Shown piece by piece: positions 28,498 through 63,158 of a stretch of DNA of 64,000 bases; within the stretch, counting starts at the first letter, position 1; each line of letters opens with the position of its first letter. Made by a program: the position numbers and the translations under genes. This stretch comes from Planctomycetota bacterium (GTDB lineage Bacteria > Planctomycetota > B15-G4 > JADJEK01). The stretch spans positions 191,048-255,047 of the forward strand of contig JBGAIQ010000004.1 in the NCBI GenBank assembly GCA_044225365.1, in the 5' to 3' direction. Under the pieces are notes generated by a model that was given only the letters and a program-made list of their open reading frames with translations, was not told the DNA's origin and did not search any database.

Positions 28498-30606
28498 ATG
28501 TCCCGCCTCCAGAGTCGCCTCGCGCTTTCCTTCGCCGCCTGCCTCCTCGGTGCCTCGCACGCGCTTGCGACCGACGACGACGCGAACGACGCCCAAACCG
28601 CCTGGGTCTGGTATCACGATCAGACACCTTCGCAGATCACGGCCCTCATCCAACAGGGTTATCGCGTCACGAATATCGAAGTCGACTCCGCATCCCCCGC
28701 GCTGTTCACCGTCGCGATGGTGAAGAACTCCGGTTCGTACGCGAAGACCTTCTGGTGGTACTACGGACAGGACTCCGCGACGATCGCCACCGAGCTCGCC
28801 CAGAACAGCGCGCGCCTGATCGATCTCGAACCGTACAACCTGAACGGTCAGGTGCGTTTCGCCGCCGTCATGGTGAAGAACACCGGCGCCGACGCAAAGA
28901 ACTGGTGGTGGGTCGCGAGCTCGAATCTGAACGATGTCTCGACGACACTGACGCAGAACGGCGCGCGTCTCACCAAGCTCGATGAAGTCACGATCGGCGC
29001 GAACACCTACTACGCCGCGATCATGATCCAGAACTCGGGCGCCGACGCGAAGAGTTGGTGGTGGTACCACGGCGTCGACGGCTCGTTCGTCGCGACGCAG
29101 CTCGGTGCGACCGGCGCCCGTCTGCTCGATCTCGCGCGGCGGTCGGATGGACTCTTCGACGTCGTCCTCGCGCAGAACGACGAAGGCTTCCATTGGTGGT
29201 GGTACTACGGCCTCGACGAGGCCGCGCTGAATGCGGAAATGGCCCAGACCGGCTCACGGGCCCTCTGCGTCCAGAAGTCGAATTCGTTCCTCGGTGCGAC
29301 CTACTCCGCCGTGCTCATCAACGACTCGAACGCGCTGACCACGACGGTCGGCGACATCTTGCGCACCGGCACCGATGGCGTTTCGGGCCTCTACCTCAAG
29401 GAGATCAACGGTCCCGTCCTCGCGAGCCTCGAGGAGCAATACGTCTTCGAGCCCGCGAGCACTTTGAAGACGCTCGTCCATGCCCATGCGATGAAGCAAG
29501 TCGCGCTCGGCACGGTCTCGCTGAACCAGCCGATCCTCGTCGACACGGGGCTCACCGGTTCGTGTCCGAACGGCACGCAGCCCGTCATCGAGTCCCTGCA
29601 GGTCGTCCTCACCAAGATGATGCAGAACTCCGACAATGCCCGCACCAAAGCGGCCGTCGACTTCTTCGGGCAAGCGAACATCAACGCCACCGCGGTCGCG
29701 CTCGGCATGACCCACTCGCAGATCAACCATGTATTCGGATGCGGCGGTCCGATTCCGAATCAGCTCACACTCGTCGACGGCGACGCGCTTCACGAGGCCG
29801 TCGCGAATGGATTCCTGGGCGCACAGAAGCAGACGTTCCACGACATCATGCTGTCGAGCGTCCCGGGATATGCGGGCGGCCTCCTCGGACAGGTGATCGA
29901 TCAGGAAGCCGCGGCGATCGGCGTCAGCAACGCGATGAAGGCGCAGTTCATCACGCTCGCCGAGATGGCGTACAAGGGCGGCAGCTACACGATCTTCCCG
30001 GGTCCGAAGGAATACCGATCGGTCCTCTCGTACGTCGATCTCCCCTTCCTCGCGCAGTTCTTCGGAAACACCGTGGTCACGCATCATCAGTACGTCACCG
30101 GGATCTTCGTCCACGCGGCTTCGAACGGCTTGACGGTCGACGGCGTCGTCAATCACGCCGCATCGGAGCTGCTGCGCGATGAGATCCATGCGGCACTCCT
30201 CACCTGGAAGTCGAACTGCGTCGCGTTCAATGCGTCCTACGGTTCGGGCAAGGCGGGAACCAAGGGCGTGCCGACTCTCACGTCGAGCCAGCTCCCGAGC
30301 CTCGGCGCGACGTCGAGCATCACGCTCGGCAACGGCAAACCCGGAGCCGCACCGCTGCTCTTCGTCGGCTTGAACAGTTCGAACCAGAGCTTCGACGGCG
30401 GCAAGTTGCTGGTCCAGCCGCAACTCATCCTGACGCTCCCCGTGATTCCCCAGAATGGAACGCTCTCGATCGCGGGCACGCTGCCGGCGGATCCGACGCT
30501 CTGTGGCGTCACGATCTATCACCAGATGATGTTCGCCGACGCGGGCGCGTCCGGCCCGTATCACACGGCGCAGACCGCGGGTCTCGCGCGCACGCTCGGC
30601 AACTGA
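28498..30606 (+). CDS. Secreted protein: Trp-rich tandem repeats (BTRD1-like) + serine beta-lactamase-like domain + shared C-terminal domain
   Basis: AGGAG SD, signal peptide; about five W(W)Y..G...RL repeats; EPASTLK (SxxK), SDN, KGG. Confidence 0.8.
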   Translation: MSRLQSRLALSFAACLLGASHALATDDDANDAQTAWVWYHDQTPSQITALIQQGYRVTNIEVDSASPALFTVAMVKNSGSYAKTFWWYYGQDSATIATELAQNSARLIDLEPYNLNGQVRFAAVMVKNTGADAKNWWWVASSNLNDVSTTLTQNGARLTKLDEVTIGANTYYAAIMIQNSGADAKSWWWYHGVDGSFVATQLGATGARLLDLARRSDGLFDVVLAQNDEGFHWWWYYGLDEAALNAEMAQTGSRALCVQKSNSFLGATYSAVLINDSNALTTTVGDILRTGTDGVSGLYLKEINGPVLASLEEQYVFEPASTLKTLVHAHAMKQVALGTVSLNQPILVDTGLTGSCPNGTQPVIESLQVVLTKMMQNSDNARTKAAVDFFGQANINATAVALGMTHSQINHVFGCGGPIPNQLTLVDGDALHEAVANGFLGAQKQTFHDIMLSSVPGYAGGLLGQVIDQEAAAIGVSNAMKAQFITLAEMAYKGGSYTIFPGPKEYRSVLSYVDLPFLAQFFGNTVVTHHQYVTGIFVHAASNGLTVDGVVNHAASELLRDEIHAALLTWKSNCVAFNASYGSGKAGTKGVPTLTSSQLPSLGATSSITLGNGKPGAAPLLFVGLNSSNQSFDGGKLLVQPQLILTLPVIPQNGTLSIAGTLPADPTLCGVTIYHQMMFADAGASGPYHTAQTAGLARTLGN

Positions 30607-30763
30607 GTCTCGAAGTCCTCGAAGTGTGTTCGTCGAGATCGGCGCGACCCGTGCCGATCTCGACGTTCGCGTAGTCCATGCGTCGAGGTGGCCAACCGTG
30701 TTAAGTTCGAATGCTGGCCCAGCGCCGGAAACGACGCGATTCGAGGGCCGTCGGAGACGATGC

Positions 30764-33697
30764 GTGCCTGCCGACTGGAAGACCCCATCCCCGATCGCCG
30801 TTCGAGTCCTGCTCGATTTCCTTGCGGCGCAGAATCGCAAGGGCGGCGGAAGCGACTCGCTCGACCAGTTGTGCGTGCAGCACCCCGAGCAAGCCGCCGA
30901 ATTGCGCATGCTCTACGCCGAATGGGGATCGATCGAAACGATCGAGGATTCGAACGTCGCCGAGTCCATCGTCGCCCGCCTCGCTCGCGATCTCGGCCAG
31001 GACATCGATCCTCAGATCGCGCTGCGCGACGGGGAGACCGCGAAGACGACGGACTCGAGCAGCGAGGACGAGAAGGGCGAGAGCGGAAGGATCCCCCGAC
31101 AGCTCGTGGCTCGCGGTGGAATGGCGACGATCTACCGCATCCAGGATCCCGAACTGCGCCGCGATCTCGCGATGAAGATCGCTCATCCCGCAGTGCGCAA
31201 GACGGCCCGACTCCTCGCGCGCTTCCTCGAGGAAGCGCAGATCACCGCGCAGCTCGACCATCCCGGCATCGTTCCGGTGCACCAACTGGGAATGGACGAC
31301 GACGGCAGCGTGTACTTCACGATGAAGCTGGTGCGCGGCCGCACCCTGCAGGAAGTGCTCGATCTCGTCGAACGCGGCGATTCCGAGTGGACGCGGACGC
31401 GAGCGCTCGGCGTGCTCCTCCGCGTCTGCGAAGCGGTCGCCTTCGCTCACAGCAAGGGCGTCATCCATCGCGACCTCAAACCGACGAACGTCATGGTCGG
31501 TCGCTTCGGCGAGACGTACGTCATGGACTGGGGTCTCGCGCGCGTGATCGGACGCGAGGACTCTCACGACGTTCGCCTGGATCTGACGGGCGCATCGCAA
31601 ACCCGCATCGTGACCGTCCGATTCCCCGGAGAAGGAACGCCGGTCGATTCGCCTCTCCACACTCTCGACGGCGACGTCGTCGGCACGCCGATCTACATGT
31701 CGCCGGAACAGGCTCGGGGGGCGCTCGAAGAGATCGGCCCCGCCTCCGATGTCTATTCCGCGGGAGCGATCCTCTACCAACTCCTCGCAGGGTCGGCGCC
31801 GTTCGTGAAGAAAGGAGAGTCCCTGTCGGCCCGCGGCGCATGGAGCCGCGTCCTCGAAGGTCCCCCCGAACCGCTCTCGACGCTCGCTCGCGAGATCCCT
31901 CCGGAACTCGTCTCGATCTGCGAGAAGTCGATGGCCCGCAAGATCACGGATCGATACCGCGACATGTCGGAGATGGCGAGCGATCTGCGTGCGTTCCTCG
32001 AGAACCGAGTCGTCAAGGCGTATGCGAGGGGTCCGATGGCCGAACTACGGAAATGGGTGACCCGCAATCGCGGAGTCGCAGCGTCGATCGCCTCCGCCGT
32101 CGCCGTCGTGATCGCGGCCGGCGGCTACGTCGTACACATCGAAACCCGGGCGAACACGCGATCCGAGGCTTTGTTGCCCGGCCACGTCCGAACCGAGCTG
32201 AACCGCCTCGCGATCGAGGCCGCGGCGCTGTGGCCCGCCGTTCCGGAGAAGCTCCCGTCGATCGATCGATGGCTGCGGGACGCACAAGAGCTCGCGCCGT
32301 CGATCGAGGCGTTGAAGCGCCAGCTCGAAGGCCTCGAAACCCACGGCGAGGCGGACGCGAGCGGAACCGAAGGATCGAGCGATCGAATCGCGCTGCAGAG
32401 CGAGCTCGACGCCGTCGACGAGTCGCATACGTTGATCGAGAGCGCTCTCGGATCGATCGACGGAATGGCGTCGGAGGGAGAGAGGTCCGCGGAGGTACGC
32501 CTGTTGACGGAGGAGAAGCGCCGACTCGAGGCGCGCGGCAGGAGCCTCCTCTCCAGGATCCAACGCACGCCGTTCCGCTTCTCCGAATGGCGGGATGCGA
32601 CGCAGTACGCCGCACTCGTCCCCGTTCTCGACGAAGCGGAACGCTTCCACGATCCCGATCCGATGATCGGAACCGTCGCCTCGATCGCAGCGAGGCGCGT
32701 CTTCGCGTCGAATCTCGCGAAGCGCTCGCTCGAAGATCGACACGAGGAATGGAAGGAGGCGATCGAGGCGATCGCGGATCCGTCGCACTGCCCCGCCTAC
32801 CATGGTCTCAAGATCCACGCGCAGCTCGGGCTCGTTCCGCTCGGACGCGATCGTGAGTCCGGGCTGTACGAGTTCGCCGCGCTCTCCAGCGGTGAGATCC
32901 CGTCGCGCGACTCGAACGGTCGACTCGTCGCAACTGCCGACTCCGCGATCGTGCTCGTCCTGCTCCCCGGCGGGAAGTTCTTCATGGGCTCCGATCCGAA
33001 CCAGGATCCGGATGCCGATGCTTCCGCGGAGGGTCCGCGCCAGGAGATCGAGCTCGCTCCCTTCCTCATCGGGAAGTACGAAGTCACACAAGCGCAGTGG
33101 CTGCGTCACACGGGATCGAACCCGAGCATCTATGCGCCCGGCGAGAAAGCGGATCGCAAGATCTCGCTGCTGTGTCCCGTCGAGAACGTGAGTTGGACGG
33201 CGGCGAACGAGTTCGCATCGGAGCTCGGACTCGGTTTGCCGACCGAGGCACAATGGGAATACGCTGCAAGAGCCGGAACGACGACGCCGTGGTGGACCGG
33301 CAGTTCTCCGGAGTCGCTGACAGGCGCAGGGAACATCGCGGATCGCGACGCTCGCAACGCGGGAGCACCGGCCGCGTGGGCCTTCGAGGATCGCCTTTCC
33401 GACGGCTTCTTCCTCCATGCCCCGGTCGGTTCGTATCGACCGAATCCCTTTGGCCTCCTGGATGTCATCGGGAACGTCGCCGAATGGTGTCATGATGCAC
33501 GAACCGACTACGCTCGCAGTGCCCCTCGCGCGGGAGACGGCGAGCGCACGGTCAATCTCGTGGCCACGCGGATCGATCGCGGTGGCAGTTTCGCGCATGG
33601 CACGAAGTCCGCGCGCTCGGCCGCACGCGAAGCCCTTCCGCCGAACGATGCGTTCGGATTCGTGGGACTTCGCGCCGTACGCAGACTCGATCCTTGA
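30764..33697 (+). CDS. Membrane Ser/Thr protein kinase with a C-terminal FGE-sulfatase (SUMF1) domain
   Basis: RGGM, HRDLKPTNV, DWGLA, GTPIYMSPEQ, a TM, then LPTEAQWEYAARAG, GNVAEWC, RGGSF; start inferred from GGAG+GTG. Confidence 0.9.
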   Translation: MPADWKTPSPIAVRVLLDFLAAQNRKGGGSDSLDQLCVQHPEQAAELRMLYAEWGSIETIEDSNVAESIVARLARDLGQDIDPQIALRDGETAKTTDSSSEDEKGESGRIPRQLVARGGMATIYRIQDPELRRDLAMKIAHPAVRKTARLLARFLEEAQITAQLDHPGIVPVHQLGMDDDGSVYFTMKLVRGRTLQEVLDLVERGDSEWTRTRALGVLLRVCEAVAFAHSKGVIHRDLKPTNVMVGRFGETYVMDWGLARVIGREDSHDVRLDLTGASQTRIVTVRFPGEGTPVDSPLHTLDGDVVGTPIYMSPEQARGALEEIGPASDVYSAGAILYQLLAGSAPFVKKGESLSARGAWSRVLEGPPEPLSTLAREIPPELVSICEKSMARKITDRYRDMSEMASDLRAFLENRVVKAYARGPMAELRKWVTRNRGVAASIASAVAVVIAAGGYVVHIETRANTRSEALLPGHVRTELNRLAIEAAALWPAVPEKLPSIDRWLRDAQELAPSIEALKRQLEGLETHGEADASGTEGSSDRIALQSELDAVDESHTLIESALGSIDGMASEGERSAEVRLLTEEKRRLEARGRSLLSRIQRTPFRFSEWRDATQYAALVPVLDEAERFHDPDPMIGTVASIAARRVFASNLAKRSLEDRHEEWKEAIEAIADPSHCPAYHGLKIHAQLGLVPLGRDRESGLYEFAALSSGEIPSRDSNGRLVATADSAIVLVLLPGGKFFMGSDPNQDPDADASAEGPRQEIELAPFLIGKYEVTQAQWLRHTGSNPSIYAPGEKADRKISLLCPVENVSWTAANEFASELGLGLPTEAQWEYAARAGTTTPWWTGSSPESLTGAGNIADRDARNAGAPAAWAFEDRLSDGFFLHAPVGSYRPNPFGLLDVIGNVAEWCHDARTDYARSAPRAGDGERTVNLVATRIDRGGSFAHGTKSARSAAREALPPNDAFGFVGLRAVRRLDP

Positions 33698-33717
33698 GAC
33701 GACGCACGGGCAACACC

Positions 33718-34869
33718 ATGAAAACTCTCCTCGTCGCTCTGTTCTTCGCACTCGCTCGCGTGACGGCTTCCGCGCAAACGATGTACGTCTGCACGATCGC
33801 GACCAACGGCTGTGCGAACCTCCCGCACGCGACCGTCGGCGCCGGGGTGTTCGACTACGATCCCGCATCGACATCCTTGAAGGGCTCGGTTGCTCTCCCC
33901 AACATGAACCCGCCCGCCGATGCGGCGTACTTCTACGAACTGCAGTCGAACTTCGGATCCTGCCCTACGGTGAACCTCGGCGCGCTGGTGAAGAATGCGG
34001 GTTCCTTCACTCTTCCTTCGACGGTGGTCGATCCCGTGAAACTCGTCTCCGGCAAGTACGCGATCGCGGTGAGCACGGTGCAGGGACAACTCCCCGGCAG
34101 CACCTCACCGAAGGGCCAGGTCACTCACGCCGACATCGGCTACCTGACGGTGCCCGTCGCGATGCCCGGAGTCTCCGCGGTCGGGAAGGGCGACGGAGAG
34201 ATCGTCCTGCTGCCGAACGATTCCCTCACCTATTCGATCGTCCTCAACGGCTTGACGTCGAACGCGACGAAGGCGGAGATCAAGTTCACGATCGGACCGA
34301 CCGTCTCCGTCCAGGAGGTTCCTCTCCAGCAAGCGAGCCCATCGTCGTTCGTCGGCACGACGATCCAACTGACGCAGGCGCAGAAGGAATCGCTCAAAGG
34401 AGGAAGCGCCTTCGTCCTCGTCCACACCATGATGAATCCGCTCGGCGAGCTCGGCGCTCCCGTCGCGACCTCGTTCACGAAGTACGGGTCGTCCTGCATG
34501 GGCGTACCGGGCGTGACCGGTGCGCCAGTGCTCTCGGCTTTCGGTATTCCGGCGGCCTCGCAGACCGTCCATCTCCATCTCAATGGTCCGCCCAATGCCA
34601 TCGCGGTCACGTTCGTGAACATCAAGGGGGCTCAGTTGCCCCTGGGCGGAGGATGCACGTTCTACGTTTCGCCGCAGGTCCTCGGTCAAGTGCCTCCACC
34701 CGTCACCTTGTTGTTCCCGCTCGATTCCACGGGGAACTTCACCGGCACGTTCGTCAGCCCGAACGTCGGGAGCGACTTGTGGCTGCAGCTCCAGAGTTTC
34801 ATGGCCGAGCCCTTGGCCCCGCTCGGCTTCGTCGCCTCGAACGGGCTGACGGCGCATCACGTCCCATGA
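33718..34869 (+). CDS. Secreted CHRD-like domain protein with shared C-terminal domain
   Basis: Signal peptide; LTYSIVLNGLTS...LTQAQKESLKGG...VHTMMNPLGEL resembles CHRD. Confidence 0.65.
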   Translation: MKTLLVALFFALARVTASAQTMYVCTIATNGCANLPHATVGAGVFDYDPASTSLKGSVALPNMNPPADAAYFYELQSNFGSCPTVNLGALVKNAGSFTLPSTVVDPVKLVSGKYAIAVSTVQGQLPGSTSPKGQVTHADIGYLTVPVAMPGVSAVGKGDGEIVLLPNDSLTYSIVLNGLTSNATKAEIKFTIGPTVSVQEVPLQQASPSSFVGTTIQLTQAQKESLKGGSAFVLVHTMMNPLGELGAPVATSFTKYGSSCMGVPGVTGAPVLSAFGIPAASQTVHLHLNGPPNAIAVTFVNIKGAQLPLGGGCTFYVSPQVLGQVPPPVTLLFPLDSTGNFTGTFVSPNVGSDLWLQLQSFMAEPLAPLGFVASNGLTAHHVP

Positions 34870-35432: not shown

Positions 35433-35486
35433 AGCAACTCCACGACCGTCCCGTGAACGCCCGACACTCGCTGGAGCGGGACCCGA

Positions 35487-37415
35487 CTAATGAGATCGTC
35501 GCGCGGTGATCTCGACATCGCGCGCCCCGGGCACCATCTCGATCCGCCCGCCGCCCGCCCACACTTCGTAACGTTGCCAGCCGTACTCCGGCAGAAAGAG
35601 AACGAACCGGCCGTCCGCGCCCGTGACCACCTCGCGCGAAGACGTCGCCGGATTCGCAACGGATTCACCGGGCCATCCGATTGTCCTCGCCCACACGCGC
35701 GCACCCGCGACCGGCGTCCCATCGACGTCGTCGACGACCCGTCCCGAGATCCTGCCGAGGTCGAGGATCGGGGCGATGTCGATCCCGAACACGGAATGAG
35801 GCTCGACCGCGAACTCGCCCTTCGCCAGCGTTGCGTCCCACGGTGAACTGCCGAAGCAGAACGCGAACTCGACATCGCCAGCAGGAACCCCATCGAACTC
35901 GTAGTGGCCACGATCGTCGGTCTCCACCGCGCGCGACAGTCCATCCTGACGCCACTCGATCGTGCCCCTCGCCGGAGCGCCCTCGATGGTGACGGCGCCG
36001 TTCACGTGGGAATCGTTCTTCGAGAAATCGAAGTCGTGACGCTGCACTTCGGCCTGCGAGACGAATGCCGCGGCGCGATAGACGAAGTCTCCTGCACTGG
36101 GAGAGTGGATCCGAAAATAGGGTCGCTCGCACCACGGCCAGAGTCCATCGAGGCGATAGCGACCGCGTGAGTCGGTGAAGACCGAAGGAGTGACCGGACC
36201 GAGCGGATGCAATCCGGCCGGAAATGGAATCGGAGGGCGAAAGTACTGCGGCCATTCCTCCGGGCCGAACGCCGTGATGCGAGCGTTGGCTTCCGGTTTT
36301 CCATCGCGACCCCGAACGATGCCCTCGAGAGCGCAGCTCGGAGCGATCACGAATTCGCTGGCGGCGAAGGTCGTATCGGGCCTCGACCTCGCATCGACCC
36401 GCCTCAGGCTTTCCGCGTAGCCCGGCTTCGAAAGTCGAACCTCGCAGCTCCATTGCTGCGGCACCGGCAGGTTCAAGACTTCGAACGAGCCCGCGAGATC
36501 GCTTCGATTCACGTCGCGGGAAAACACGAACTGCTCACTCAGCGCGCCCCACCCCTCGAGCACGCCGATCGAACAATCGGACAACGCCTCGCCTGTGAGA
36601 AGGTCGACGACACGGCCGCGATACGTCGGTCCCTCGCCGAGCTCGAAGTCACGCTGGACCTCTCCCGCCGTCCCAACACGGAAATTCTCGTGTCGGGGGC
36701 ACGTGTTTCTCGGCGCAATCGCAATCCCCCATGCCCAAGCGGTTCCCGCTTCGCTTCTCACTGAGGTTGGGAGATCGTCGATCCGATACCGCCCATTCTC
36801 GTCGGTCGTGGCCGTCGCCAGCGACTCGGGCCAATTGCCAATGACGGTGATTCGAGCGCCCTCTACCGGCATGGCGCTCCTCGCATCGGTGACGCGGCCG
36901 AAGATCGAGACGGCGTCGCCCATTCGAACCGTCCCGGTCGCCGTACTCATCACTTCGTCGATGCGAAGGCCGAATCCGCTCTTTCGCACCAGGACTCGAC
37001 TCGCGCCGTGCAGCGCGATTCGAAAACGCCCTCTTCCATCCGTCGCCACGCTGTGCTCCGCGAACTCCCACCCGCGGTTCTCACCCTCGTATCGCAGCGC
37101 ATCGACGCTCGCGCCTTCGATCGGCGCCCCATGCGCGTCCACGACGGTCCCCGAGCATTCGGCCACTTCAGGGTCGCTCTTGGATGCGAACGAGACGAGT
37201 CGCCGCAACGGCTCGACCGTTCGAACCTCGATCGGGGAAGTCGCGAGAGATCGCTCGATCCGAACGAACTCGGGACGCGGTCGATGGATCCTCGTTCGCG
37301 CGGTCGGCCTCTGTTCGAACAACACGACGCACAGCGTGTCGATCAACAAGACGGCGATAAATGTGCGAGAATCGGCTCGCATTCCGCCTCGGTCGTGACC
37401 GCCCCCGCTGTTCAT
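35487..37415 (-). CDS. Carboxypeptidase-regulatory-like repeat protein
   Basis: Repeated G.V.D..G.P..GA.V ... TD..GR(F/Y) beta modules; alternative start at 37382. Confidence 0.8.
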   Translation of the reverse strand: MNSGGGHDRGGMRADSRTFIAVLLIDTLCVVLFEQRPTARTRIHRPRPEFVRIERSLATSPIEVRTVEPLRRLVSFASKSDPEVAECSGTVVDAHGAPIEGASVDALRYEGENRGWEFAEHSVATDGRGRFRIALHGASRVLVRKSGFGLRIDEVMSTATGTVRMGDAVSIFGRVTDARSAMPVEGARITVIGNWPESLATATTDENGRYRIDDLPTSVRSEAGTAWAWGIAIAPRNTCPRHENFRVGTAGEVQRDFELGEGPTYRGRVVDLLTGEALSDCSIGVLEGWGALSEQFVFSRDVNRSDLAGSFEVLNLPVPQQWSCEVRLSKPGYAESLRRVDARSRPDTTFAASEFVIAPSCALEGIVRGRDGKPEANARITAFGPEEWPQYFRPPIPFPAGLHPLGPVTPSVFTDSRGRYRLDGLWPWCERPYFRIHSPSAGDFVYRAAAFVSQAEVQRHDFDFSKNDSHVNGAVTIEGAPARGTIEWRQDGLSRAVETDDRGHYEFDGVPAGDVEFAFCFGSSPWDATLAKGEFAVEPHSVFGIDIAPILDLGRISGRVVDDVDGTPVAGARVWARTIGWPGESVANPATSSREVVTGADGRFVLFLPEYGWQRYEVWAGGGRIEMVPGARDVEITARRSH

Positions 37416-37696
37416 CAGGTCTTCGGCACGTACTTCTCGAGAGTGGTCAGAAGAACCTCGCCGCAAAGCTCGACCCTCGCCCGCGCGATCCTCGTTCCCT
37501 CCTCGCGTAATCTCACCGACACCACGTCCACGAGCCCGGCGAATGCACTCGATCGCCCGAACGAGTCGAAGGAAAGTAGGCGCACTTGGCGCAGTGCGTG
37601 GCCGTGAGCAGCGCACAAGTCTCCAAGCGCTAGAACGCCCGCGACACCGATAAGCATTGCGGCCCTGACGGGTCGAATCATGGATTCCGCCTCCAA
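37415..37696 (-). CDS. Small hypothetical protein
   Basis: 93-aa ORF filling the gap, hydrophobic N-terminus, stop abuts the next start. Confidence 0.35.
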   Translation of the reverse strand: MEAESMIRPVRAAMLIGVAGVLALGDLCAAHGHALRQVRLLSFDSFGRSSAFAGLVDVVSVRLREEGTRIARARVELCGEVLLTTLEKYVPKT

Positions 37697-37798
37697 CTTC
37701 GAATCGGCGGACTCTTCAGACTACGACGCATCCCGCTGACTCGTCCACCGGTCGGACCCGACGAACGTGCCTGAGAGCCGGAAGGTTCACTCCGAGAC

Positions 37799-38797
37799 TC
37801 AGGGAATCGAGAGCTGCAGCCCGTTCGACGCCGAGAAGGTCGCCGGCGCCGTGTGATCGGGCACCAAGGCCTGGAGCACGAACGTCGAACCCGAGAGGCT
37901 CGGCGCCACGACGAACGATTGCGAGAATGCGCCTTCGCAGGGACCGGTGCCACTGAGGAAGATGGGACCGACGAACGCCACGAGCGGGCTGACCAGCAGC
38001 GCGCAGCCGTGGCCGAGGGAGAGCTGGGCCTGCTGGTTCCCGATCGCGAAGAACGCGCCGCTTCCACCGAGGCCTTCCGACAGCTCGACGCCGAGCGTCG
38101 ACCCCACGGACGGAGCGCCCGTGGCAGAAAGAAGTGGAACGCAACCGCCCGAGCCCGGGCACCCGGCGCCGTAGATCCCGAGTGCGCGGCCATACTGGAC
38201 GTGGTCGATCTCCCAATCGGTCGACCCCTGACACGTCACTTCGATACGCGAGATTCCGCCGCCGAAGCGGGCGCCGAGGAATCGATCCTCCGCCGTGGCG
38301 CTGAACGCGCTGCCATCGCCGAGCGATACAGGAGTCGTCGTGCCGAGACTGACGCCATTCGCGTCGAAGGCCTCGAGCGTGACGAGCGCGAATCCGGACT
38401 GCGGACTCGCGAATCCGACGTCCGTCCAGACGACGCCAGCATGCGTCGGCAGGGCGCCGAGCATTCCCACGTCGAAGTTGATGACGACGGTTTGCGAGAG
38501 GTTCACGAGGTAGGAATTCCCCGAGCTTCCGCTGCCATCGATCGCGCCGTCGTCGGCGTCGACGCTGTCGGTGAACGCTCCCGGACCGATGGGCGAACCT
38601 CCGACGATGGCGAGACCGGGCGTGTTCACGAGACCATCCTCGAAGTTCTCGAGGTGGAAATATGCGAATGCGACCCCGTTGAAGGGGCTGTCGCTCGACT
38701 GCAGGTAGGGGGAGGGGCCGAGCAGCGCCTGCGCGTGCGCGGAGGGCGACAGGATCGACGCGATGACGATGGCGAACATGGATCCAACGAGCTTCAC
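37799..38797 (-). CDS. Secreted protein with shared C-terminal domain
   Basis: GAGGAG SD + GTG, signal peptide AHA-Q; ends SASNGLQLSIP. Confidence 0.8.
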   Translation of the reverse strand: MKLVGSMFAIVIASILSPSAHAQALLGPSPYLQSSDSPFNGVAFAYFHLENFEDGLVNTPGLAIVGGSPIGPGAFTDSVDADDGAIDGSGSSGNSYLVNLSQTVVINFDVGMLGALPTHAGVVWTDVGFASPQSGFALVTLEAFDANGVSLGTTTPVSLGDGSAFSATAEDRFLGARFGGGISRIEVTCQGSTDWEIDHVQYGRALGIYGAGCPGSGGCVPLLSATGAPSVGSTLGVELSEGLGGSGAFFAIGNQQAQLSLGHGCALLVSPLVAFVGPIFLSGTGPCEGAFSQSFVVAPSLSGSTFVLQALVPDHTAPATFSASNGLQLSIP

Positions 38798-38917
38798 GAC
38801 GGCGCTCTCCTCGACGACGATGCACGACGGAAATGCCGGATTCGACGCAGCGGTCGACAGCCGCGTTCCGTTCGATTGCCGGCGGAGCATCGCTCGCTCC
38901 GGAGGATCGCGCGTGCG

Positions 38918-39373: not shown

Positions 39374-39443
39374 TGCCCGTTCCTTTCCGGATTCATGATC
39401 GCTCTGCGCAAGGAATCGGGAATCCCGCGACCGCGCATCGAGT

Positions 39444-45064: not shown

Positions 45065-45329
45065 TCCCGTTCCCCCGTCCTGCGAAGCGCCGAACTCGGC
45101 TCGGCATGCTGGATCCGAATCGTGACGACGATGGGCGACGCCCCGCTCATCGCATCTCGTCAGCGACATTCGAAGACTCAATTCGACGCTGCCGTGGCTT
45201 CGCACGAAGTGCGTCCATCGAGGGAATCGTCGCATTCCACGCCGATCGACCGTTCCGGGCGGCGCATCGGCGGTGACATCCTTCTTCGAGAACGGCGTCA
45301 CCAAGAACGTTCGCCGACGATTCGGTGGC

Positions 45330-46427
45330 GTGACCTCCCTCGATCGAAAACCCCATGACCGTCTCGTGAAGGCTGCGTTCCGTCGAGTCGCCGGCGCCCG
45401 CGCATTGCTCATGTTGGCGCTACCGGAAGCCGTTCGGAAGCAGCTCGACTTCGACGACCTGCGCCTAGTCTCGGGCGACCTCATCGGCTCGCGCCTCCGC
45501 GAGAGCCTCACCGACCTGTTGTATTCGATCGGCGACGATGCGAACCCGGTCTTGGTGCACGCGCTCGTCGAGCACAAGAGTCGATCCGAGCGATTCACGA
45601 TCCTACAACTCCTCACGAGCAGCGCTGATCTGTGGTCGGCCTACCGCCGCGAGAACCCGTTGGCTCGACGCATCCCGAGGATCCTCCCGATCGTTCTGCA
45701 CCATGGCGTCGGCAGGCGTCGCCCTTGGACAGCACCCACGACCCTGCCCGCGTTGTTCGCGGGCGGCCCCGGGCTTGCTCACGCCTGCGCCCCATTCGAT
45801 CCTCACTTCCCCATCGTCGTGATCGACCTCACGTCGATCGAAGACGAGCGAATCTTGGATGTCGCTGCAATCGACCCCTTCGCCGCCGCCGCGCTCTGGG
45901 CGCTCAAGTGGTCACGAGCTGTCGACTTCCTGACGAGGCTGACCGCACAACCCTTCGTCCTCGAATTCATGCTGCGTCCGGGCTGTTTGGGCGCGGAGCG
46001 CCCCGATGCAGAATCGCTGTTAGACTATGCGGTGATGGTCGGCGCATCGACGCTCGACTACGACGAGTTCGTGCGACGCCTGCAGCAACACTTACCGGCG
46101 GTCGAGACGGAGGACTTCATGAAGACGCTCGGACAGGAACTGATCGAACGCGGCAAGATCGAAGGCAAGATCGAAGGCAAGATCGAAGGCAAGATCGAAG
46201 GCAAGATCGAAGGCAAGATCGAGGGCAAGATCGAAGGCAAGATTGAAGGCAAGATCGAGGGGCAGCTTCAAGCCTTGCGGAAGTTCCTCTCGGTGCGTTT
46301 CGGTCCTCTCCCACCGGATCTCGACCGCAAGCTCGAGATCTCCGCCCATCCGACCGTGCTCGATCGGCTCACCGCGCTCGCGGCCTCCGCACGGAGCCTG
46401 ACGGAGTTCGAACGGGAACTTGCATGA
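45330..46427 (+). CDS. Rpn family (YhgA-like) PD-(D/E)xK nuclease
   Basis: PHDRLVK, TDLLYS, LVEHKS, ILPIVLHHG, WTAPT; GKIE-repeat tail. Start approximate. Confidence 0.88.
   Translation: MTSLDRKPHDRLVKAAFRRVAGARALLMLALPEAVRKQLDFDDLRLVSGDLIGSRLRESLTDLLYSIGDDANPVLVHALVEHKSRSERFTILQLLTSSADLWSAYRRENPLARRIPRILPIVLHHGVGRRRPWTAPTTLPALFAGGPGLAHACAPFDPHFPIVVIDLTSIEDERILDVAAIDPFAAAALWALKWSRAVDFLTRLTAQPFVLEFMLRPGCLGAERPDAESLLDYAVMVGASTLDYDEFVRRLQQHLPAVETEDFMKTLGQELIERGKIEGKIEGKIEGKIEGKIEGKIEGKIEGKIEGKIEGQLQALRKFLSVRFGPLPPDLDRKLEISAHPTVLDRLTALAASARSLTEFERELA
46119..46427 (+). CDS. Putative in-frame internal RpnS antitoxin
   Basis: GGAGG at 46109-46113 followed by ATG 46119 (MKTLGQELIE...). Confidence 0.65.
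   Translation: MKTLGQELIERGKIEGKIEGKIEGKIEGKIEGKIEGKIEGKIEGKIEGQLQALRKFLSVRFGPLPPDLDRKLEISAHPTVLDRLTALAASARSLTEFERELA
46152..46259. repeat. 12-bp tandem repeat (GGCAAGATCGAA)x9 encoding GKIE
   Basis: Nine near-perfect in-frame copies. Confidence 0.95.
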
Positions 46428-49997: not shown

Positions 49998-50201
49998 GAT
50001 CGGTCGCACAGCATGCTAGGAACCCGCCCGATTGTCGACGGGTACTGGCCTCGTAGCAAGCCGGGACAATAAAACGATGATTCGACATCGGACAAGACCT
50101 CGGCCCCGGAAACGAGGCGGATACCCCGAACGAACACGCCAGAGTCAGCAATTCCGATGATCCGTAGCGGGCAACACGACTCGAGAGTGAGCAGCAGGGG
50201 G

Positions 50202-53200
50202 ATGTGGAGGGCATGCGCCCTCGCATCCGCCGTTCTTCTCGCTTTGCCCGCCTTCGCGGGATCCCCGCCCCAGGACTCGGCGGAACCGGCCAAGGATGCG
50301 GAGGTCGAGAACGCAATCCGGATCCTGGGCAAGCGGGCCGACGAATCGCCGGGCGAGCGACTCGCCGCCGCTGCGCTCCTCCTCCAACGCAGTCGCGGCG
50401 ACCTTGCCTCCGATGCGATCCACGAACTTTCGAACGCCTCCGATCCGACGATTGCGGCGTGCTGCCGGGCTCTGAATGCACTCTCCTCGAGAGAGGGCTC
50501 GATCCCCTCGCTCGACTCCATCCTGGAAACGGCGCGAGGACTCGACGACACGACGCGTCGAGCGTTCCTCTTCACGGTCTACGACCGGGTGGGTCGCTTC
50601 GCGATCCGGGTTCGCGATGAACGCGTCACGGACCGATGCATCGACGAGCTTCGAAAGCTCGCGAGCGAATCCAAGGATCCGCGAATCGCGATCGACGCCG
50701 ATCTCGTCGCCGGAGCGGATGCGTTGTCCCGCTTCGACTCGATCCACGCCGCTCCGCTCCTGCAGTCCGCTTTCACCTCCGCGCGAGCGGCCGGCGACGC
50801 TCTTCTCGAGGCGCGCGCGCGGGCCGGCCTCGGATGGCACTACTCTCGGATCGATGACACGGAACACGCCATCGTCGAATTGAGAGCGGCTTGCGCCACG
50901 TTCTCCGCCCTACATGCCACCGAAGTCGAACAGGAGTTTCGCATCGTCCTGGGCCAACAGCTCATGTCCCACGGCGACGTCGATGCCGCGCTCGTCGAGA
51001 CCGGTCGGGGGATCGCGCTCGCACGCCAACTCGCCGACACGTCGGCCGAGGTCTTCGCACTCAAGACCGAAGGATTGATCCTCCTCGCGACCGGTCACCC
51101 GGCAGAGAGCGCCGAACGATTCTCGGCGATGCGCGAGATCGGCGAGAAGCTGCATCGACCCGCGATCCGAGCCGAAGCCGAACGCGACCTCGCCGTCATC
51201 GAGTTCAGCCAGGATCACCTCGAGACCGCCCGACGATTGCTGGAGCATTCGCTCTCGTCCTCGCTCGAGTCCGGCGACGTGAGTGGATCGGTCGAGGCCC
51301 GCTTTCGAATCGCTTCGATCGCCGACCGCCAAGGCGATACACGTGCCGTGATCGAGCATGCGACCGCCGTACTCGACGACGAGCTGGCGCGCCGTGAGGC
51401 GCAGTACGCGCTCGATCTCCTCCTAATGCGCGGAGCCGCTCACCACGCCGTCGGAGACTATCCGGCCGCGCGCCGCGATATCGAATCCGGGCTCGCGATC
51501 GCGCGTGAACGCGCGCAGAAGACGATGATCTGCTACGGCCTGTTCCTGCGCTCCAAGGTCGCGGCCTCGACAGGTGACCTCGACGCGGCGCTCGCCGATG
51601 CAATCGAGTGCGTCGCCGCGTCGATCGGAACGCCCGACCCGAGTCAAGAGATCGAAGCCCGCCTCTTCCTCGCCGAGATCCGCCTGGTGCGCCGCGAGTC
51701 GGAGGAGGCCGCGAAGGAGTTCGCGGCCATCACCGTGCCGGACGACGCTTCGCCCCTCGTCCGGTGCTATGTCGAGATGCTCCGTTCGCGCATCCTCGAT
51801 GCGACGAACGATCCCGTCGGAGCCAAGGCCGCCGCGGAAACCGCGCTCGCGACGGCGGAGGACACCGGCGACCGCGCGATCGTCCAATTCGAACAGATCA
51901 AGCTCGCCGAAGCCGCCCTCGAGCGCGTCGAGAGCGGCGCGGGGAGCGAGGCCGATCTCGCGGACGCCAAGCGCTACGCAACGGCTGCGCTCGGAGACGG
52001 TCACGACCCGACGACGTTCGATCGCCGGCAACTCGATGCCACGTTCGTGCTGATCGGTTGCGCCTTGCGCGAGGGAAACGTCGAGGACGCAGCAACTCGA
52101 ATCGAACACGCCAGCCGGGCCGTGGAGCGCGTCGCGGGCAGTGCGGCGATCGAGCAGATGGGCGTGGAGTCCGCGTCGCGCGCACGTGCGCCGTTCTCCG
52201 AACTTTCGAACGACGTGATGGACCTCGTCGCGATCCAGGTCGCACGCGCCGACGATTCCGAGAAACGCAAACTCATCGAACGCGGGTTCGCACGGTCCAG
52301 CGGTTTCCAGGCCCGCGCGTTGCTCGAGGGCATCGAGGAGCATCGAGCCGGCGGTCGCGACAAAAGAATCCTTGAACTGCGCTCGAAGCGGAAGGAAGCC
52401 CTCGATCGCCGCGAAGCCGCGCTCCGACTCGCATCCGAGCGCCTCCTCCTCTCCGACGCAGAGGGCGCCGCGGCCGCCCGCGCCGAATCGAATGCCGCTT
52501 TCGAAGCCGCAGGGCGAATCGATGACGAACTCGCCACGGCGGACCCGCGCCACGCACGGGCTTTCGATCCGCCGTCGATCCCACCGCAGGAACTCGTGCG
52601 AGCGGGCATCGTCGGGCCTGGCCGCGCCGTCCTTCAATACGTGATGGGACGAACGCACACATTCGTCTACGTCGTCGCGCCCGGCGAGACACGACTCGTC
52701 GATCTCGGGAACACCGCCGATCTCGAGAGCGAGATCGCGGCGTATCTCACGCGTGTCGCGGATCCGAAGCGCCTCGGTACGGCACCCGAGATCGCGACTC
52801 TCGGAGGGAAGCTGTTCGACGACCTCCTGCGCCCCGCATTTCCCGACCCGATGAAGGCGGAGAGCGAGTGGATCGTCGTACCGAGCGGAGCCATCGCGAG
52901 CCTGCCGTTCGAGTCGCTCGTCGTCGACGTGAGCGGACCGAAGGGCGATGCGACGTTCGATCGCATCGAATTCGTCCTCGATCGATTCTCCGTCCGCTAC
53001 GCGCCGTCGATCCCGGTTCTCCTCGAGCTGCAGGAGGAAGGTCGCAGGACCGATTCGCGCTCGCTCCGCGAGAAGCGAGCCCTCGTCATCGCGAGCCCAG
53101 AGATCGGTGGCGATCTCCCCCCGCTGCCGGCAGCCGCGGAGGAAGGAAAGATCGTCGCGAGCCATTTCGACTCCGTCGAGAGCCTCGTCGGCAAGAGCGC

Positions 53201-53726
53201 GCTCGCTTCGATTCTGCGCGGTGATCTGCGGAGGTTCGACGTCCTCCACTTCGCAACCCACGGCGCGGTGAGCGCCACGACGCCGCTCGAAACGGGACTC
53301 GTTCTTCGCGGAGTCGATGGCAAGGCCGAACTCGTCGGTGTGCCCGAGGTCCTCGACTTCGATCTGAGCGCGCAACTCGTGGTCCTGTCCGCGTGCTCCA
53401 CATCCGAAGGTCCGCGGCGCGAAGGCGAAGGCGTCGAGTCGCTCGCGCGAGCCTTCCTGTTCGCAGGATCTCGATCCGTCGTCGCGAGCTTGTGGGAACT
53501 CTCCGACGCCGCCGCATTGCCGACGATCCGCGTCTTCTACGACGAGTACTCGAAGAACGCGACGCCGTCGCAAGCGCTCCTGCTCGCAAAGCGTGCGTTG
53601 CGGCACGGGGCACTGTCCACGAGCGCGGCGGAGAATCGCGGTGTTGGCAGCGTGCGACGCGCGCCGATCACCGCCCCGTCCGGGCATCCATTCCTCTGGG
53701 CGCCGCTCGTCGCGATCGGAAAGTAG
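50202..53726 (+). CDS. Exported TPR-CHAT (caspase-like) protease
   Basis: Signal peptide MWRACALASAVLLALPAFA; long TPR-like region; catalytic HFATHG and LSACST; SLW, HPFLWAP. Confidence 0.9.
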   Translation: MWRACALASAVLLALPAFAGSPPQDSAEPAKDAEVENAIRILGKRADESPGERLAAAALLLQRSRGDLASDAIHELSNASDPTIAACCRALNALSSREGSIPSLDSILETARGLDDTTRRAFLFTVYDRVGRFAIRVRDERVTDRCIDELRKLASESKDPRIAIDADLVAGADALSRFDSIHAAPLLQSAFTSARAAGDALLEARARAGLGWHYSRIDDTEHAIVELRAACATFSALHATEVEQEFRIVLGQQLMSHGDVDAALVETGRGIALARQLADTSAEVFALKTEGLILLATGHPAESAERFSAMREIGEKLHRPAIRAEAERDLAVIEFSQDHLETARRLLEHSLSSSLESGDVSGSVEARFRIASIADRQGDTRAVIEHATAVLDDELARREAQYALDLLLMRGAAHHAVGDYPAARRDIESGLAIARERAQKTMICYGLFLRSKVAASTGDLDAALADAIECVAASIGTPDPSQEIEARLFLAEIRLVRRESEEAAKEFAAITVPDDASPLVRCYVEMLRSRILDATNDPVGAKAAAETALATAEDTGDRAIVQFEQIKLAEAALERVESGAGSEADLADAKRYATAALGDGHDPTTFDRRQLDATFVLIGCALREGNVEDAATRIEHASRAVERVAGSAAIEQMGVESASRARAPFSELSNDVMDLVAIQVARADDSEKRKLIERGFARSSGFQARALLEGIEEHRAGGRDKRILELRSKRKEALDRREAALRLASERLLLSDAEGAAAARAESNAAFEAAGRIDDELATADPRHARAFDPPSIPPQELVRAGIVGPGRAVLQYVMGRTHTFVYVVAPGETRLVDLGNTADLESEIAAYLTRVADPKRLGTAPEIATLGGKLFDDLLRPAFPDPMKAESEWIVVPSGAIASLPFESLVVDVSGPKGDATFDRIEFVLDRFSVRYAPSIPVLLELQEEGRRTDSRSLREKRALVIASPEIGGDLPPLPAAAEEGKIVASHFDSVESLVGKSALASILRGDLRRFDVLHFATHGAVSATTPLETGLVLRGVDGKAELVGVPEVLDFDLSAQLVVLSACSTSEGPRREGEGVESLARAFLFAGSRSVVASLWELSDAAALPTIRVFYDEYSKNATPSQALLLAKRALRHGALSTSAAENRGVGSVRRAPITAPSGHPFLWAPLVAIGK

Positions 53727-53732
53727 CGTCGA

Positions 53733-58613: not shown

Positions 58614-58784
58614 CGGAGGGCTCCAGGCTTGTTTCCGGGACATCGCCAGATCTACCACACCGCCACCCATCCGCCGAGACGCATCTACCGCCACGTGGAT
58701 CTCGCGCAAGACGAGTTCCTCCCGTAATCTGTCGGGTTCCGCGCCACCCGTGAACGGGCGATGCGGCGCAAGGAGCACGGTGTC

Positions 58785-60476: not shown

Positions 60477-60547
60477 GGGCGCACGGCTGTGCGCCCGGAT
60501 TCGCGCACGGCAAATTCAACGACGGGCACACAGCCATGTGCCCCTAC
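60473..60547. repeat. GTAG-type REP doublet (REPIN-like)
   Basis: GTAGGGGCGCACGGCTGTGCGCCC ... GGGCACACAGCCATGTGCCCCTAC, an inverted pair. Confidence 0.85.
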
Positions 60548-60556
60548 GAGCCATCG

Positions 60557-61414
60557 ATGACGAAACTCTTCACGATCCTCGGTAATTCCCAGCGCCTCGA
60601 TGGCGGAGCGATGTTCGGCAACGCCCCCAAAGCCGTCTGGTCGAAGTGGATTGCGCCGGACGAGCTCAATCGAATACCGCTCGCCTGTCGCGCGCTGCTC
60701 ATCGTCGAGGACTCCGGTCGCACGATCCTGCTCGAGACCGGAATCGGCGCGTTCTTCGCCCCGAAGATGCGAGACCGTTTTGGCGTCGTCGAGAGCGAAC
60801 ACGTACTGCTCGAGAATCTGCGACGCGCTGGATTCGCTCCGAACGACATCGACGTCGTCGTACTCTCCCACCTCCATTTCGATCACGCGGGCGGTCTCCT
60901 CACCCCGTATCGCGAGGGAGAGGCGCCAAGGCTCGTCTTCGAGAAGGCGAGATTCGTCGTCGGCAAGGAAGCGTGGAAGCGCGCAAATGCGCCACATGCG
61001 CGCGATCGCGCTTCGTTCATCCCGGAATTACAGCCCTTGCTCGAGACTTCGAATCGACTCGAGATCGTCGCGGGAAGTTCGTCGACGACGCTCGGTCCGG
61101 GGTATCGACTCCACTTCAGCGACGGCCACACACCCGGACTCATGCTCGTCGAAGTGCCCACTGAAGATGGGCCCGTCGTGTTCGCGGGCGACCTGATCCC
61201 GGGCGCGGCGTGGGTCCACGTTCCGATCACGATGGGTTACGATCGTTACCCCGAACTGGTGATCGACGAGAAGCGTGCCCTCCTCACCGACCTCGCCGCG
61301 CGGAATGGGCGACTCTTCTTCACACACGATCCGGCGATCTCGTCCGCGCGAGTGAAGGCAAGAGACGGCGGCAGCTTCGAACCCATCGATCCCGTGATCG
61401 CCCACGCCGGCTGA
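60557..61414 (+). CDS. MBL-fold metallo-hydrolase (YtnP-like)
   Basis: [35 protein letters not shown]. Confidence 0.92.
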
Positions 61415-61601
61415 TCTCGCCCTCCGGAAAAACACCCTGTCCCTTCCGAAACGCGCGCGCGCGTTCCCGGTTCCCGTCCGGATTGTCACTCCCGTTCGTC
61501 GCAAACACGCGGTTTCTTGCGGCATGTCGATTGATGTCTCCATCGTGCTCGCTGTCGCGGCGCCTTGCCGCGAATTCCCGATGAGAAGTACTGGAGATCG
61601 C

Positions 61602-63158
61602 ATGAGTCCAAGAATCGACCGTCTCGTGCCCTGCGCGTTCGCTCTCGGCGTCCTACCCCTTGCTCACGCGGGTCTGCCGAACGAGCAGGGAATCCTGACG
61701 CAATACTCCGCGAGCTCGATGACGCTCGGCAGCACGGTGTCCGACCTCGTCGCGGGCGACATCGATCACGACGGTGATATCGACCTCATCGCCGCAGACA
61801 GCGCCGGCAATGCGGTACGGTTCCTCGTCAACGATGGCGTCGGCGGATTCGTGAAGAAGAGCTTCAACCTCGGCGCGACTCCCGGCGCACTCGCCCTCGG
61901 CGACATCGACTCGGATGGAGACCTCGACCTGCTCGTCGGGTTCTATTCGGAGATGCGGACGTTGCGCAACGACGGCGCGGGCAATTTCCTCATCACCTCT
62001 ACCCTTTCCTACCCGTCGAGCGGAATCGATGCCGTGGGCGCCAGCTTCACCGACGTGAACGGCGACGGAAAGCTCGACGCCGTCGTGGGACTGCGCCACA
62101 TCTCGGTCGGAGCGAGCTACTCGGGTGCGCTGTTCGTCGCGATCGGCGATGGAATCGGCGGGTTCACCGCTTCGACTCCCCATGTCCTCGCTCTTTCGGC
62201 CTTCGCGATCGTCGAGGCCGATTTCAATCGCGACGGGAAAGCCGATTTCGCCGAACTCGGCGGCAACGTGACCGCGTCGCCCATGAACATCGCGTTCGGG
62301 AACGGCGACGGAACGTTCGTGAACAGTGGAGTCAGCTACTCCGCGGGCTTGTATGCCGGAGCGCTGACCGCGGGCGACTTCGACGGCGACGGCGCCCCGG
62401 AACTCGTGGGCGGCGGGAAGTACAACCTGTCCGTCTATCACAACGACGGTAGCGGGAACTTCGCGTTGCTCCAGAACGTCAGCATCGGCGCGTATGCGAA
62501 GGGCGCGACGGTCGGGGACATCGACAACGACGGTGATCTCGACATGATGGCGACCTCGGGCTCGGCGGCGGCGGCTCGCATGCTGATGAACGACGGTACC
62601 GGTCACTTCACCACGACGGCCTCGATCCCCGCCTCGGTGCAGTGTTACGCGGTGGTTCTCGCCGACACGAACGGGGACGGCTACCTCGATCCGTTCGCCG
62701 GCGACGTGACCAGCGGCGCTCTCACGTCGGGCAGCAGTCACAACGTCGTCGCTCGCTACGGCACGGCGAAGACGAACTCGCTCGGCTGCGCGCCCAAGAT
62801 GACCGCGACCGGAACACCTTCGAAGACCGGAAGCGGCTTCACGATGGGCGTCTCGAACGAGATCCCCTCGCAGCCCGGCATCCTCCTCATCGGCTTCGCG
62901 CCTCTCTCGCAGCCGGCCCTCGGCGGTCAGCTCCTCGTGGCCGCGCCCTACGTGGTCGTGCCCGTGACGACGAGCGCGGGCTCCGGGAATCCCTTCACGT
63001 GCGACGGCAGCGTCAGCATCCCGTTGAGCGCGGCGTCACTCGGCCTCGGCGCCGTCGGCCTGAAGGTGTACGCGCAAGTGCTGACGGTCGATCCGCAGAT
63101 GTTCGACGGCACCCAGGCTTCACTCAGCGATGGTCTGCGGTTCGAGATCACGCCCTGA
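61602..63158 (+). CDS. Secreted FG-GAP/VCBS repeat protein with shared C-terminal domain
   Basis: Signal peptide; about seven D.D/N.DG..D repeats; ends SLSDGLRFEITP. Confidence 0.88.
   Translation: MSPRIDRLVPCAFALGVLPLAHAGLPNEQGILTQYSASSMTLGSTVSDLVAGDIDHDGDIDLIAADSAGNAVRFLVNDGVGGFVKKSFNLGATPGALALGDIDSDGDLDLLVGFYSEMRTLRNDGAGNFLITSTLSYPSSGIDAVGASFTDVNGDGKLDAVVGLRHISVGASYSGALFVAIGDGIGGFTASTPHVLALSAFAIVEADFNRDGKADFAELGGNVTASPMNIAFGNGDGTFVNSGVSYSAGLYAGALTAGDFDGDGAPELVGGGKYNLSVYHNDGSGNFALLQNVSIGAYAKGATVGDIDNDGDLDMMATSGSAAAARMLMNDGTGHFTTTASIPASVQCYAVVLADTNGDGYLDPFAGDVTSGALTSGSSHNVVARYGTAKTNSLGCAPKMTATGTPSKTGSGFTMGVSNEIPSQPGILLIGFAPLSQPALGGQLLVAAPYVVVPVTTSAGSGNPFTCDGSVSIPLSAASLGLGAVGLKVYAQVLTVDPQMFDGTQASLSDGLRFEITP

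Follow-up and report, generated by a model that had tools for sequence, protein, structure and literature searches.

The window, by which we mean the whole 64,000-nucleotide stretch of DNA analysed here (C34:191048-255047 of a 6.53-Mb, 103-contig Planctomycetota assembly, G000), encodes four exported proteins, P0001 to P0004, whose cores differ and whose C-termini carry copies of one domain, which we call the terminal domain (Table 1). The four tagged genes form no operon, and an iterated hidden Markov model (HMM) found exactly four copies of the domain within the window, with envelopes at 30199-30600, 34444-34863, 37802-38206 (- strand) and 62718-63152. The surrounding sequence is ordinary chromosome, which also encodes MurJ, GroES/GroEL, IleRS, GalK/GalT, RsgA, kinases and a GH127 enzyme; the relatives of its GroEL come from Planctomycetota metagenome-assembled genomes (MAGs), the best at 86% identity.

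Each of the four open reading frames (ORFs) has a signal-peptide-like N-terminus at the start that a first-pass annotation of the DNA had proposed. The different cores that it described were borne out by Pfam, which assigned Beta-lactamase2 (E 2.5e-15) and BTRD1 (E 4.8e-07) to P0001 and other families to P0002 and P0004. The cargo of P0003 matched no Pfam family. An AlphaFold2 model of P0003 residues 40-363 (mean pLDDT 82.8) contains two all-beta domains, and the full-length model gave only generic matches, a jelly-roll plus an immunoglobulin (Ig) tandem, with a best E of 3e-5 and a TM-score of 0.30. Translation of P0003 could begin at a GTG near 38797 or at the ATG at 38890, and the GTG may be the real start. 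None of the four tails was named by NCBIfam. With regard to the core of P0001 (28498-30198, + strand), Pfam describes BTRD1 as a 'polyglycine hydrolase-like structural repeat', and the architecture recalls the polyglycine hydrolases, here in a planctomycete.

Table 1. Tagged genes and terminal domains in window coordinates (i-E, independent E-value).
Feature	Position	Strand	Basis
P0001, exported; BTRD1-type repeats and beta-lactamase-like core, then terminal domain	28498..30606	+	start M56 of ORF = 28498; stop 30604-30606
Terminal beta-sandwich domain of P0001, without Cys pair	30199..30603	+	iterated HMM i-E 5.9e-30; alignments
P0002, exported CHRD-domain protein with terminal domain	33718..34869	+	ORF translation; Pfam CHRD (E 5.8e-07)
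Terminal beta-sandwich domain of P0002, with Cys pair	34444..34866	+	HMM i-E 3.3e-24; four-tail alignment
P0003, exported; all-beta cargo domain (residues 45-232), then terminal domain	37799..38890	-	ORF; homologues; AlphaFold2 model
Terminal beta-sandwich domain of P0003 (copy modelled)	37802..38206	-	HMM i-E 3.3e-33; AlphaFold2 model
P0004, exported FG-GAP beta-propeller protein with terminal domain	61602..63158	+	ORF; Pfam FG-GAP_3 (E 1.2e-42)
Terminal beta-sandwich domain of P0004	62718..63155	+	HMM i-E 1.1e-21; four-tail alignment

Are the four tails homologous? They align with 12 invariant columns, including YG, G..L.V.P, Q and GL motifs. Pairwise BLASTP scores between tails were modest (22-41 bits), and a profile search was therefore taken as the test of homology. 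An HMM built from the four tails alone identified 123 domains at i-E <= 1e-5 among the 42,117 six-frame ORFs of at least 80 residues in G000, far beyond chance. After one iteration, 177 ORFs were recovered at i-E <= 1e-3, with 154 at <= 1e-10 and 131 at <= 1e-20. These results show that a single domain of about 125-135 residues makes up all four tails, as the first-pass annotation had claimed from their shared motifs, and that the domain is abundant in this genome.

We observed that the domain occurs once per ORF, and never more than once, in all 177 cases, and that the end of 169 copies lies no more than 15 residues from the stop codon. In the near-complete C-terminal copies, the model end falls -1 to +9 residues from the stop, mostly 1-2. 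The eight exceptions comprise one fragment and seven copies directly behind the signal peptide, four of them strong (i-E 1e-27 to 1e-37) and three weaker or partial, with lamin-tail domain (LTD), FG-GAP repeats or other domains as cargo downstream. The arrangement of signal peptide, terminal domain and LTD has full-length counterparts in three other genomes (G005, G010 and G011), which align with query residues 7-333 of 335 at 47-49% identity, indicating that the N-terminal placement is real and conserved. The first-pass annotation had called the domain strictly terminal, in the manner of the C-terminal domain (CTD) of the type IX secretion system (T9SS), and in this respect it has to be amended. 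In the 30 residues upstream of the domain, we detected no low-complexity linker and no shared or cleavage motif. The 169 C-terminally tagged proteins show a bias in their final residue, which is most often Pro (54), then Q (25) and N (19).

The placement bears on one alternative, namely that the domain is an outer-membrane export signal, which a translocon particular to the lineage would read before the signal is removed or modified, by analogy with the T9SS CTD of Bacteroidota. About 95% of the copies lying at the extreme C-terminus, a single copy per protein on diverse cargo and the frequent final Pro would all suit such a signal. On the other hand, the N-terminal copies, with one architecture kept across genera, argue against a signal that needs a free C-terminus, and the lack of a conserved linker or cleavage motif upstream also counts against an export signal. 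We consider this alternative rather unlikely, also in view of the database searches described below.

The tagged proteins are, for the most part, predicted to leave the cytoplasm. A signal-peptide-like start was present in 142 of the 177 ORFs by a crude rule that tests all candidate starts and may therefore over-call; of the 35 ORFs that failed it, eight are cut by contig ends and several others look signal-peptide-like by eye. Lipobox-like sites are rare (8/142). No transmembrane (TM) helix or basic tail follows the domain, in agreement with the first-pass annotation, and hydrophobic 19-mers past the signal peptide are confined to beta-strands inside the domain, save in one kinase-linked ORF. 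This ORF (G000 C10:6629-10801, + strand) is a frame of 1,391 codons with a Ser/Thr kinase, a TM helix, a TPR-like stretch, a second signal-peptide-like segment, FG-GAP repeats and the terminal domain, and represents either a sensor kinase anchored in the membrane or a pair of genes that share one open frame; because of the second signal-peptide-like segment, it was not used as topology evidence.

Across 147 near-full copies, the median pairwise identity is 27%, which points to an old expansion rather than recent duplication. The most conserved columns are Q108 (99%), G13, P24 and G88 (95% each) and D113 (91%), and their near-invariance at such low overall identity marks the family, as judged from its alignment, as old and selected. 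The Cys columns 16 and 68 covary, with both residues in 74 of the 147 copies, neither in 72 and a single one in 1, a pattern that fits an optional disulfide made outside the cytoplasm. From a 44-row alignment, AlphaFold2 modelled the P0003 copy with high confidence (pLDDT 94.6, pTM 0.87) as an all-beta, Ig-like sandwich of eight strands. Foldseek found nothing in the PDB at E <= 1e-3; its best rows were assorted sandwiches at E 1.5e-3 or worse (TM-score ~0.35-0.45), including chitin-binding/lytic polysaccharide monooxygenase (LPMO), CARDB and lipid-binding ML domains. A second structure search reached a best Z of 7.8, a level typical for models without a clear relative, with macroglobulin (MG) and LILR Ig domains at the top: 7s62_A (Z 7.8, root-mean-square deviation (rmsd) 2.9, 100 residues), 6k7o_A (Z 7.8, rmsd 2.8, 90 residues) and 2pn5_A (Z 7.7). 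The PorU CTD region (6za2_B; Z 6.6, rmsd 3.3, 95 residues) ranked 32 among generic Ig-like matches. A two-copy self-association prediction scored 0.01 against a mark of 0.42, which is not evidence either way.

Could such a sandwich simply be a ligand-binding module or a passive building block? A module resembling a carbohydrate-binding module (CBM) or lectin would concentrate the proteins on an external substrate, a prey surface or the cell's own exopolysaccharide, rather than on the envelope. In size and beta-sandwich fold the domain looks like a typical CBM, and it may stand at either terminus; the polar residues Q108 and D113 are nearly invariant, and the weak Foldseek rows include the chitin-binding and lipid-binding domains named above. 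However, no aromatic column is conserved at >= 70% in the 147 copies, tandem copies are absent from the 177 ORFs and no Pfam CBM family is matched. A passive structural domain, on the other hand, would serve as an Ig-like stalk or stabiliser that domain shuffling has spread, comparable to the thigh/calf domains behind integrin propellers, and would play no part in sorting or anchoring. The generic Ig-like and macroglobulin matches would suit it, but a domain that is single and terminal in 177 ORFs, never internal or tandem, and that keeps its polar positions so strongly despite its divergence, would not. Both alternatives are taken up again with the cargo.

Sequence databases gave the domain no name. 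PDB sequences yielded no match to the 44-row profile at E <= 10, and none of the 44 copies matched Pfam at E <= 0.1, with the dockerin, CBM and Por_Secre_tail families included. NCBIfam produced a single chance-level match for the same copies (STM0539_fam, E 0.031). Neighbours in the ESM Atlas were solely unnamed Planctomycetota clusters, and a full-text literature search, judged from titles and abstracts, turned up no description of the domain. The export-signal alternative is weakened by the failure of sequence comparison to link the domain with Por_Secre_tail or with other families of Pfam and NCBIfam, even though its Ig-like sandwich resembles that of T9SS CTDs and the PorU CTD is among the structural matches.

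The distribution is restricted. The domain is present in 31 of 31 genomes of its own order, where the matches per genome range from 2-4 in one family to at least 131 reached in others, and in 59 of the 301 genomes sampled across the phylum (E <= 1e-5). Large families of the phylum lack it (0/15, 0/15, 0/10 and 0/10 genomes), as do four of four named genomes, including Lacipirellula limnantheis I41, and all 151 genomes of the neighbouring phylum, that of a Limisphaerales MAG. Among 1.84 billion public cluster representatives, 17,185 matched at E <= 1e-3 and 8,004 at <= 1e-10; in the best 150 of the 17,185, the domain stands at the C-terminus throughout, and among 10 representatives looked up, the sole source name was 'lysyl endopeptidase'. 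Four DNA sequencing runs contain the stretch, labelled as bioreactor or activated-sludge metagenomes, and no RNA run is among the listed runs. The terminal domain is thus an undescribed family, an Ig-like beta-sandwich that is probably often disulfide-stabilised and is confined to certain uncultured Planctomycetota lineages. The first-pass annotation, which could name no family and thought of lineage-specific machinery, is borne out as to the lack of a named family and the restriction to a lineage. Of the checks it had suggested, an HMM scan of genome and phylum produced many matches, mostly C-terminal and on signal-peptide-like proteins, and structure prediction gave a confident fold for which Foldseek found no PDB match at E <= 1e-3.

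What does the domain accompany? A cargo scan covered 102 of the 177 proteins, from 40 regions chosen for holding several tagged genes each. FG-GAP repeats were found in 31 of the 102 and other propeller-type repeats (PD40, Kelch, WD40, SBBP/DUF7948, DUF5122, NHL/SGL) in 16, followed by peptidases (M10, S8, M23; three), other enzymes (Exo_endo_phos, two GSDH and an esterase; four), DUFs (four), CHRD (two), MtrC-like multihaem proteins (two), beta-helix only (two), TIG (one) and LTD (one); 36 had no Pfam family. NCBIfam added HAF repeats in five proteins and one TIGR03790 member. In G000, the most populous paralogue cluster near tagged genes appears FG-GAP-like; 47 of its members carry the domain and 114 lack it, so that both versions of one cargo type coexist in the genome. 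In all, at least 20 unrelated Pfam cargo types bear the domain, which upholds the cargo independence asserted earlier for Sec-type exported proteins and argues against a passive stalk, although some 30% of the scanned cargo being FG-GAP propellers is in keeping with one. The same list also counts against a ligand-binding module, given that the cargo consists mostly of non-enzymatic propellers and not of glycoside hydrolases.

We then obtained evidence of a different kind from cargo domains that occur with other tails. The cargo of P0003 (residues 45-232, ending ...DWEIDHVQYG) has 537 homologues at E <= 1e-3. Among the best 119 of these, the C-terminus of 106 is a short hydrophobic run followed by basic residues in a cluster, and 75 of the 106 also contain a P[ET][PS] motif. 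Several such tails match PF07589 or bear the name PEP-CTERM or PEPxxWA-CTERM in source records that assign them to Burkholderiaceae and Opitutaceae. The other tails of the 119 are the terminal domain (five, E 1e-28 to 1e-36), dockerin-like repeats (five) and something else (three). Within the phylum, the cargo was found in 9 of 301 genomes. In G031, G131 and G165, which lack the terminal domain, it is followed by a PEP-CTERM-type tail of 25-36 residues, and these genomes have strong exosortase matches (9.5e-49, 1.5e-57 and 8.7e-61). In the six genomes with the domain, the exosortase match is absent or weak, and the tail is the terminal domain in five; the sixth, G034, has a Cys-rich, HMM-negative domain of 160 residues. 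One planctomycete family (G034 and G274) ends the same cargoes in this Cys-rich domain of ~160 residues (...YYRDP...C...N.S.G..V.W), which escapes the HMM; it is nevertheless similar to variants that are detected weakly, P0335 and P0350 among them, and may be a divergent subfamily.

HAF-repeat proteins, present in 41 of the 301 genomes, gave a similar picture. We read 30 loci, one per genome, 12 from genomes with the domain and 18 from genomes without. In the former, the tail is the terminal domain by HMM in seven and an uncertain variant in two, while two loci have no tail and one is incomplete; PEP-CTERM-type and dockerin-like tails are both at zero. In the latter, 11 tails are PEP-CTERM-type and two dockerin-like, two loci have no tail and three are incomplete; the terminal domain and the uncertain variant are both at zero. 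G000 itself has no PEP-CTERM-like tail by pattern search and a single weak exosortase-like match (1.3e-19). As far as can be read from the sequences, then, two cargo families with the terminal domain in G000 bear PEP-CTERM-type or dockerin-like tails in other bacteria, among them planctomycetes that lack the domain; this is new evidence on its role. An exchange for membrane-anchor-type PEP-CTERM tails, and not for CBMs, speaks against an external ligand, and we hold the ligand-binding module to be unlikely. Exchange with bona fide sorting tails likewise disfavours a passive structural domain. In the TIGR03790 and CHRD families the domain is one of several optional C-terminal add-ons, as such a domain might be; even so, we regard the passive alternative as quite improbable.

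Could the terminal domain serve as a handle by which exported proteins are held at the cell envelope? Because it occupies the slot of anchoring tags in other bacteria, it probably holds its proteins at the cell surface. Modules that function at either terminus are typically binding modules rather than C-terminal signals. The N-terminal copies, the absence of a cleavage motif and the anchoring-tag slot on two cargo families together favour non-covalent docking, dockerin-like in its logic. In the mechanism that we propose, the Sec pathway would carry the proteins across the inner membrane by means of their N-terminal signal peptides. The domain would then fold outside the cytoplasm, one per protein, in ~95% of cases at the C-terminus and in a few just past the signal peptide, and would act as a common handle that binds a shared, hypothetical component of the cell envelope or surface matrix. 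In this way diverse cargoes would be retained at the cell surface: beta-propellers above all, FG-GAP and others, but also some peptidases, nucleases, dehydrogenases and multihaem proteins. The domain would thereby do what, in other bacteria, PEP-CTERM/exosortase tails or dockerin modules do for the same cargo domains. We give docking or retention at the cell envelope about an even chance. The domain itself, its fold class, its single-copy terminal placement, its extracytoplasmic context, its distribution and the tail swap come from the data, whereas binding, a receptor and the surface location are inferred.

Several observations weigh against docking at the envelope. A genome classed as lacking the domain can by definition not display it, so that the PEP-CTERM side of the exchange is its sole independent observation. 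Across the phylum, exosortase does not anticorrelate with the domain, being matched in 25 of 59 genomes with it and 108 of 242 without. The TIGR03790 cargo shows no swap: the 27 complete ORFs from genomes that lack the domain include no PEP-CTERM-like tail, and in genomes with the domain only 1 of 19 complete ORFs passes the HMM. For the CHRD cargo, 18 of 119 homologues carry the terminal domain and most end in a further CHRD repeat; few have PEP-CTERM, TM-plus-basic, FlgD_ig or dockerin-like tails, and a word-index search with the CHRD cargo of P0002 found only P0002 itself. The fold match is generic. Finally, no receptor or machinery was found, and up to two genes away from the 177 tagged ones no family shows convincing enrichment; the neighbours that are enriched comprise FG-GAP paralogues only (29 near of 114, p ~2e-4) and tiny families, with no candidate partner among them.

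The search for machinery also touched the export-signal alternative. SprA_N (PF14349), PorP_SprF (PF11751) and Por_Secre_tail (PF18962) gave no match in G000, which is 94% complete, and likewise none in 14 control genomes, so that this negative, which would count against a T9SS-like route, has no positive control. Exosortase was considered as complementary machinery and dropped, its presence being unrelated to that of the terminal domain. The export or attachment machinery that the first-pass annotation had taken to be implied was thus not identified. Its broader idea of a sorting or anchoring system fared better in one part than in the other: the tail swap with PEP-CTERM-type and dockerin-like tails strengthens it, whereas the likeness to a T9SS export signal has become less probable.

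Some neighbouring genes of the window may be recorded here. An ORF of 1,055 residues (30530-33694, + strand) combines a Ser/Thr protein kinase (E 2.8e-31) with an FGE-sulfatase/SUMF1-like domain (E 6.2e-41) at its C-terminus. A protein of 709 residues (35490-37616, - strand), flanked by tagged genes, has three CarboxypepD_reg domains and Big_1/bMG3-like matches but lacks the terminal domain. A YhgA-like (Transposase_31) gene lies at 45126-46424 (+ strand) and a CHAT-domain protein of 1,217 residues at 50073-53723 (+ strand).

How proteins are placed on the unusual planctomycete envelope is largely unknown, and the terminal domain provides a list of candidate surface proteins that numbers 177 in G000 and no fewer than 17,185 clusters in public data. 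The tail swap with PEP-CTERM-type and dockerin-like modules turns its role into a concrete functional hypothesis that is open to testing. A named family model would better annotate thousands of 'hypothetical' proteins, and if a receptor or translocon exists, it would represent a new surface-display system and possibly a display tool for these bacteria.

Among known systems, the exosortase system is connected to the terminal domain through shared cargo. PEP-CTERM (Haft et al. 2006; PMC1569441) is a tag on many exported proteins of environmental bacteria, planctomycetes included, which consists of a motif of ~25 residues with a TM helix and a basic tail and is cleaved by a membrane enzyme. It takes the same place on the P0003 cargo and the HAF-repeat cargo, but the terminal domain is folded and has no TM helix or basic tail, and exosortase occurs independently of it. 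Ig-like and MG domains give the best structural alignments of the model; they share 3-15% sequence identity with it, however, and stand in internal tandem arrays, unlike the single terminal domain.

Dockerins resemble the terminal domain in being cargo-independent terminal modules, which dock many proteins on a common receptor in the cohesin-dockerin system, and dockerin-like tails take the same position on both swap cargo families. Dockerins are usually C-terminal and sometimes N-terminal. A dockerin is, however, a small Ca-binding helical repeat, whereas the terminal domain is an all-beta sandwich without a Pfam dockerin match, and no cohesin-like receptor was identified. The T9SS CTD (PF18962/TIGR04183; type B TIGR04131) is likewise a folded Ig-like sandwich at the C-terminus of many unrelated Sec-exported proteins, in a single copy per protein, lineage-restricted and with dozens to more than 100 cargoes per genome. 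In the model, the terminal domain appears to share this Ig-like fold, but the fold alone is not specific; it has no sequence similarity to the T9SS CTD, is longer (~125-135 residues, eight strands) and is occasionally N-terminal. It is conceivable, though on balance doubtful, that certain uncultured Planctomycetota have a targeting system of their own, in which ~3-4% of the genes would carry a beta-sandwich address domain read by a dedicated, hypothetical receptor or translocon. Such a system would have replaced PEP-CTERM/exosortase on shared cargo, and would be a third folded-tag sorting system beside T9SS and cohesin-dockerin.

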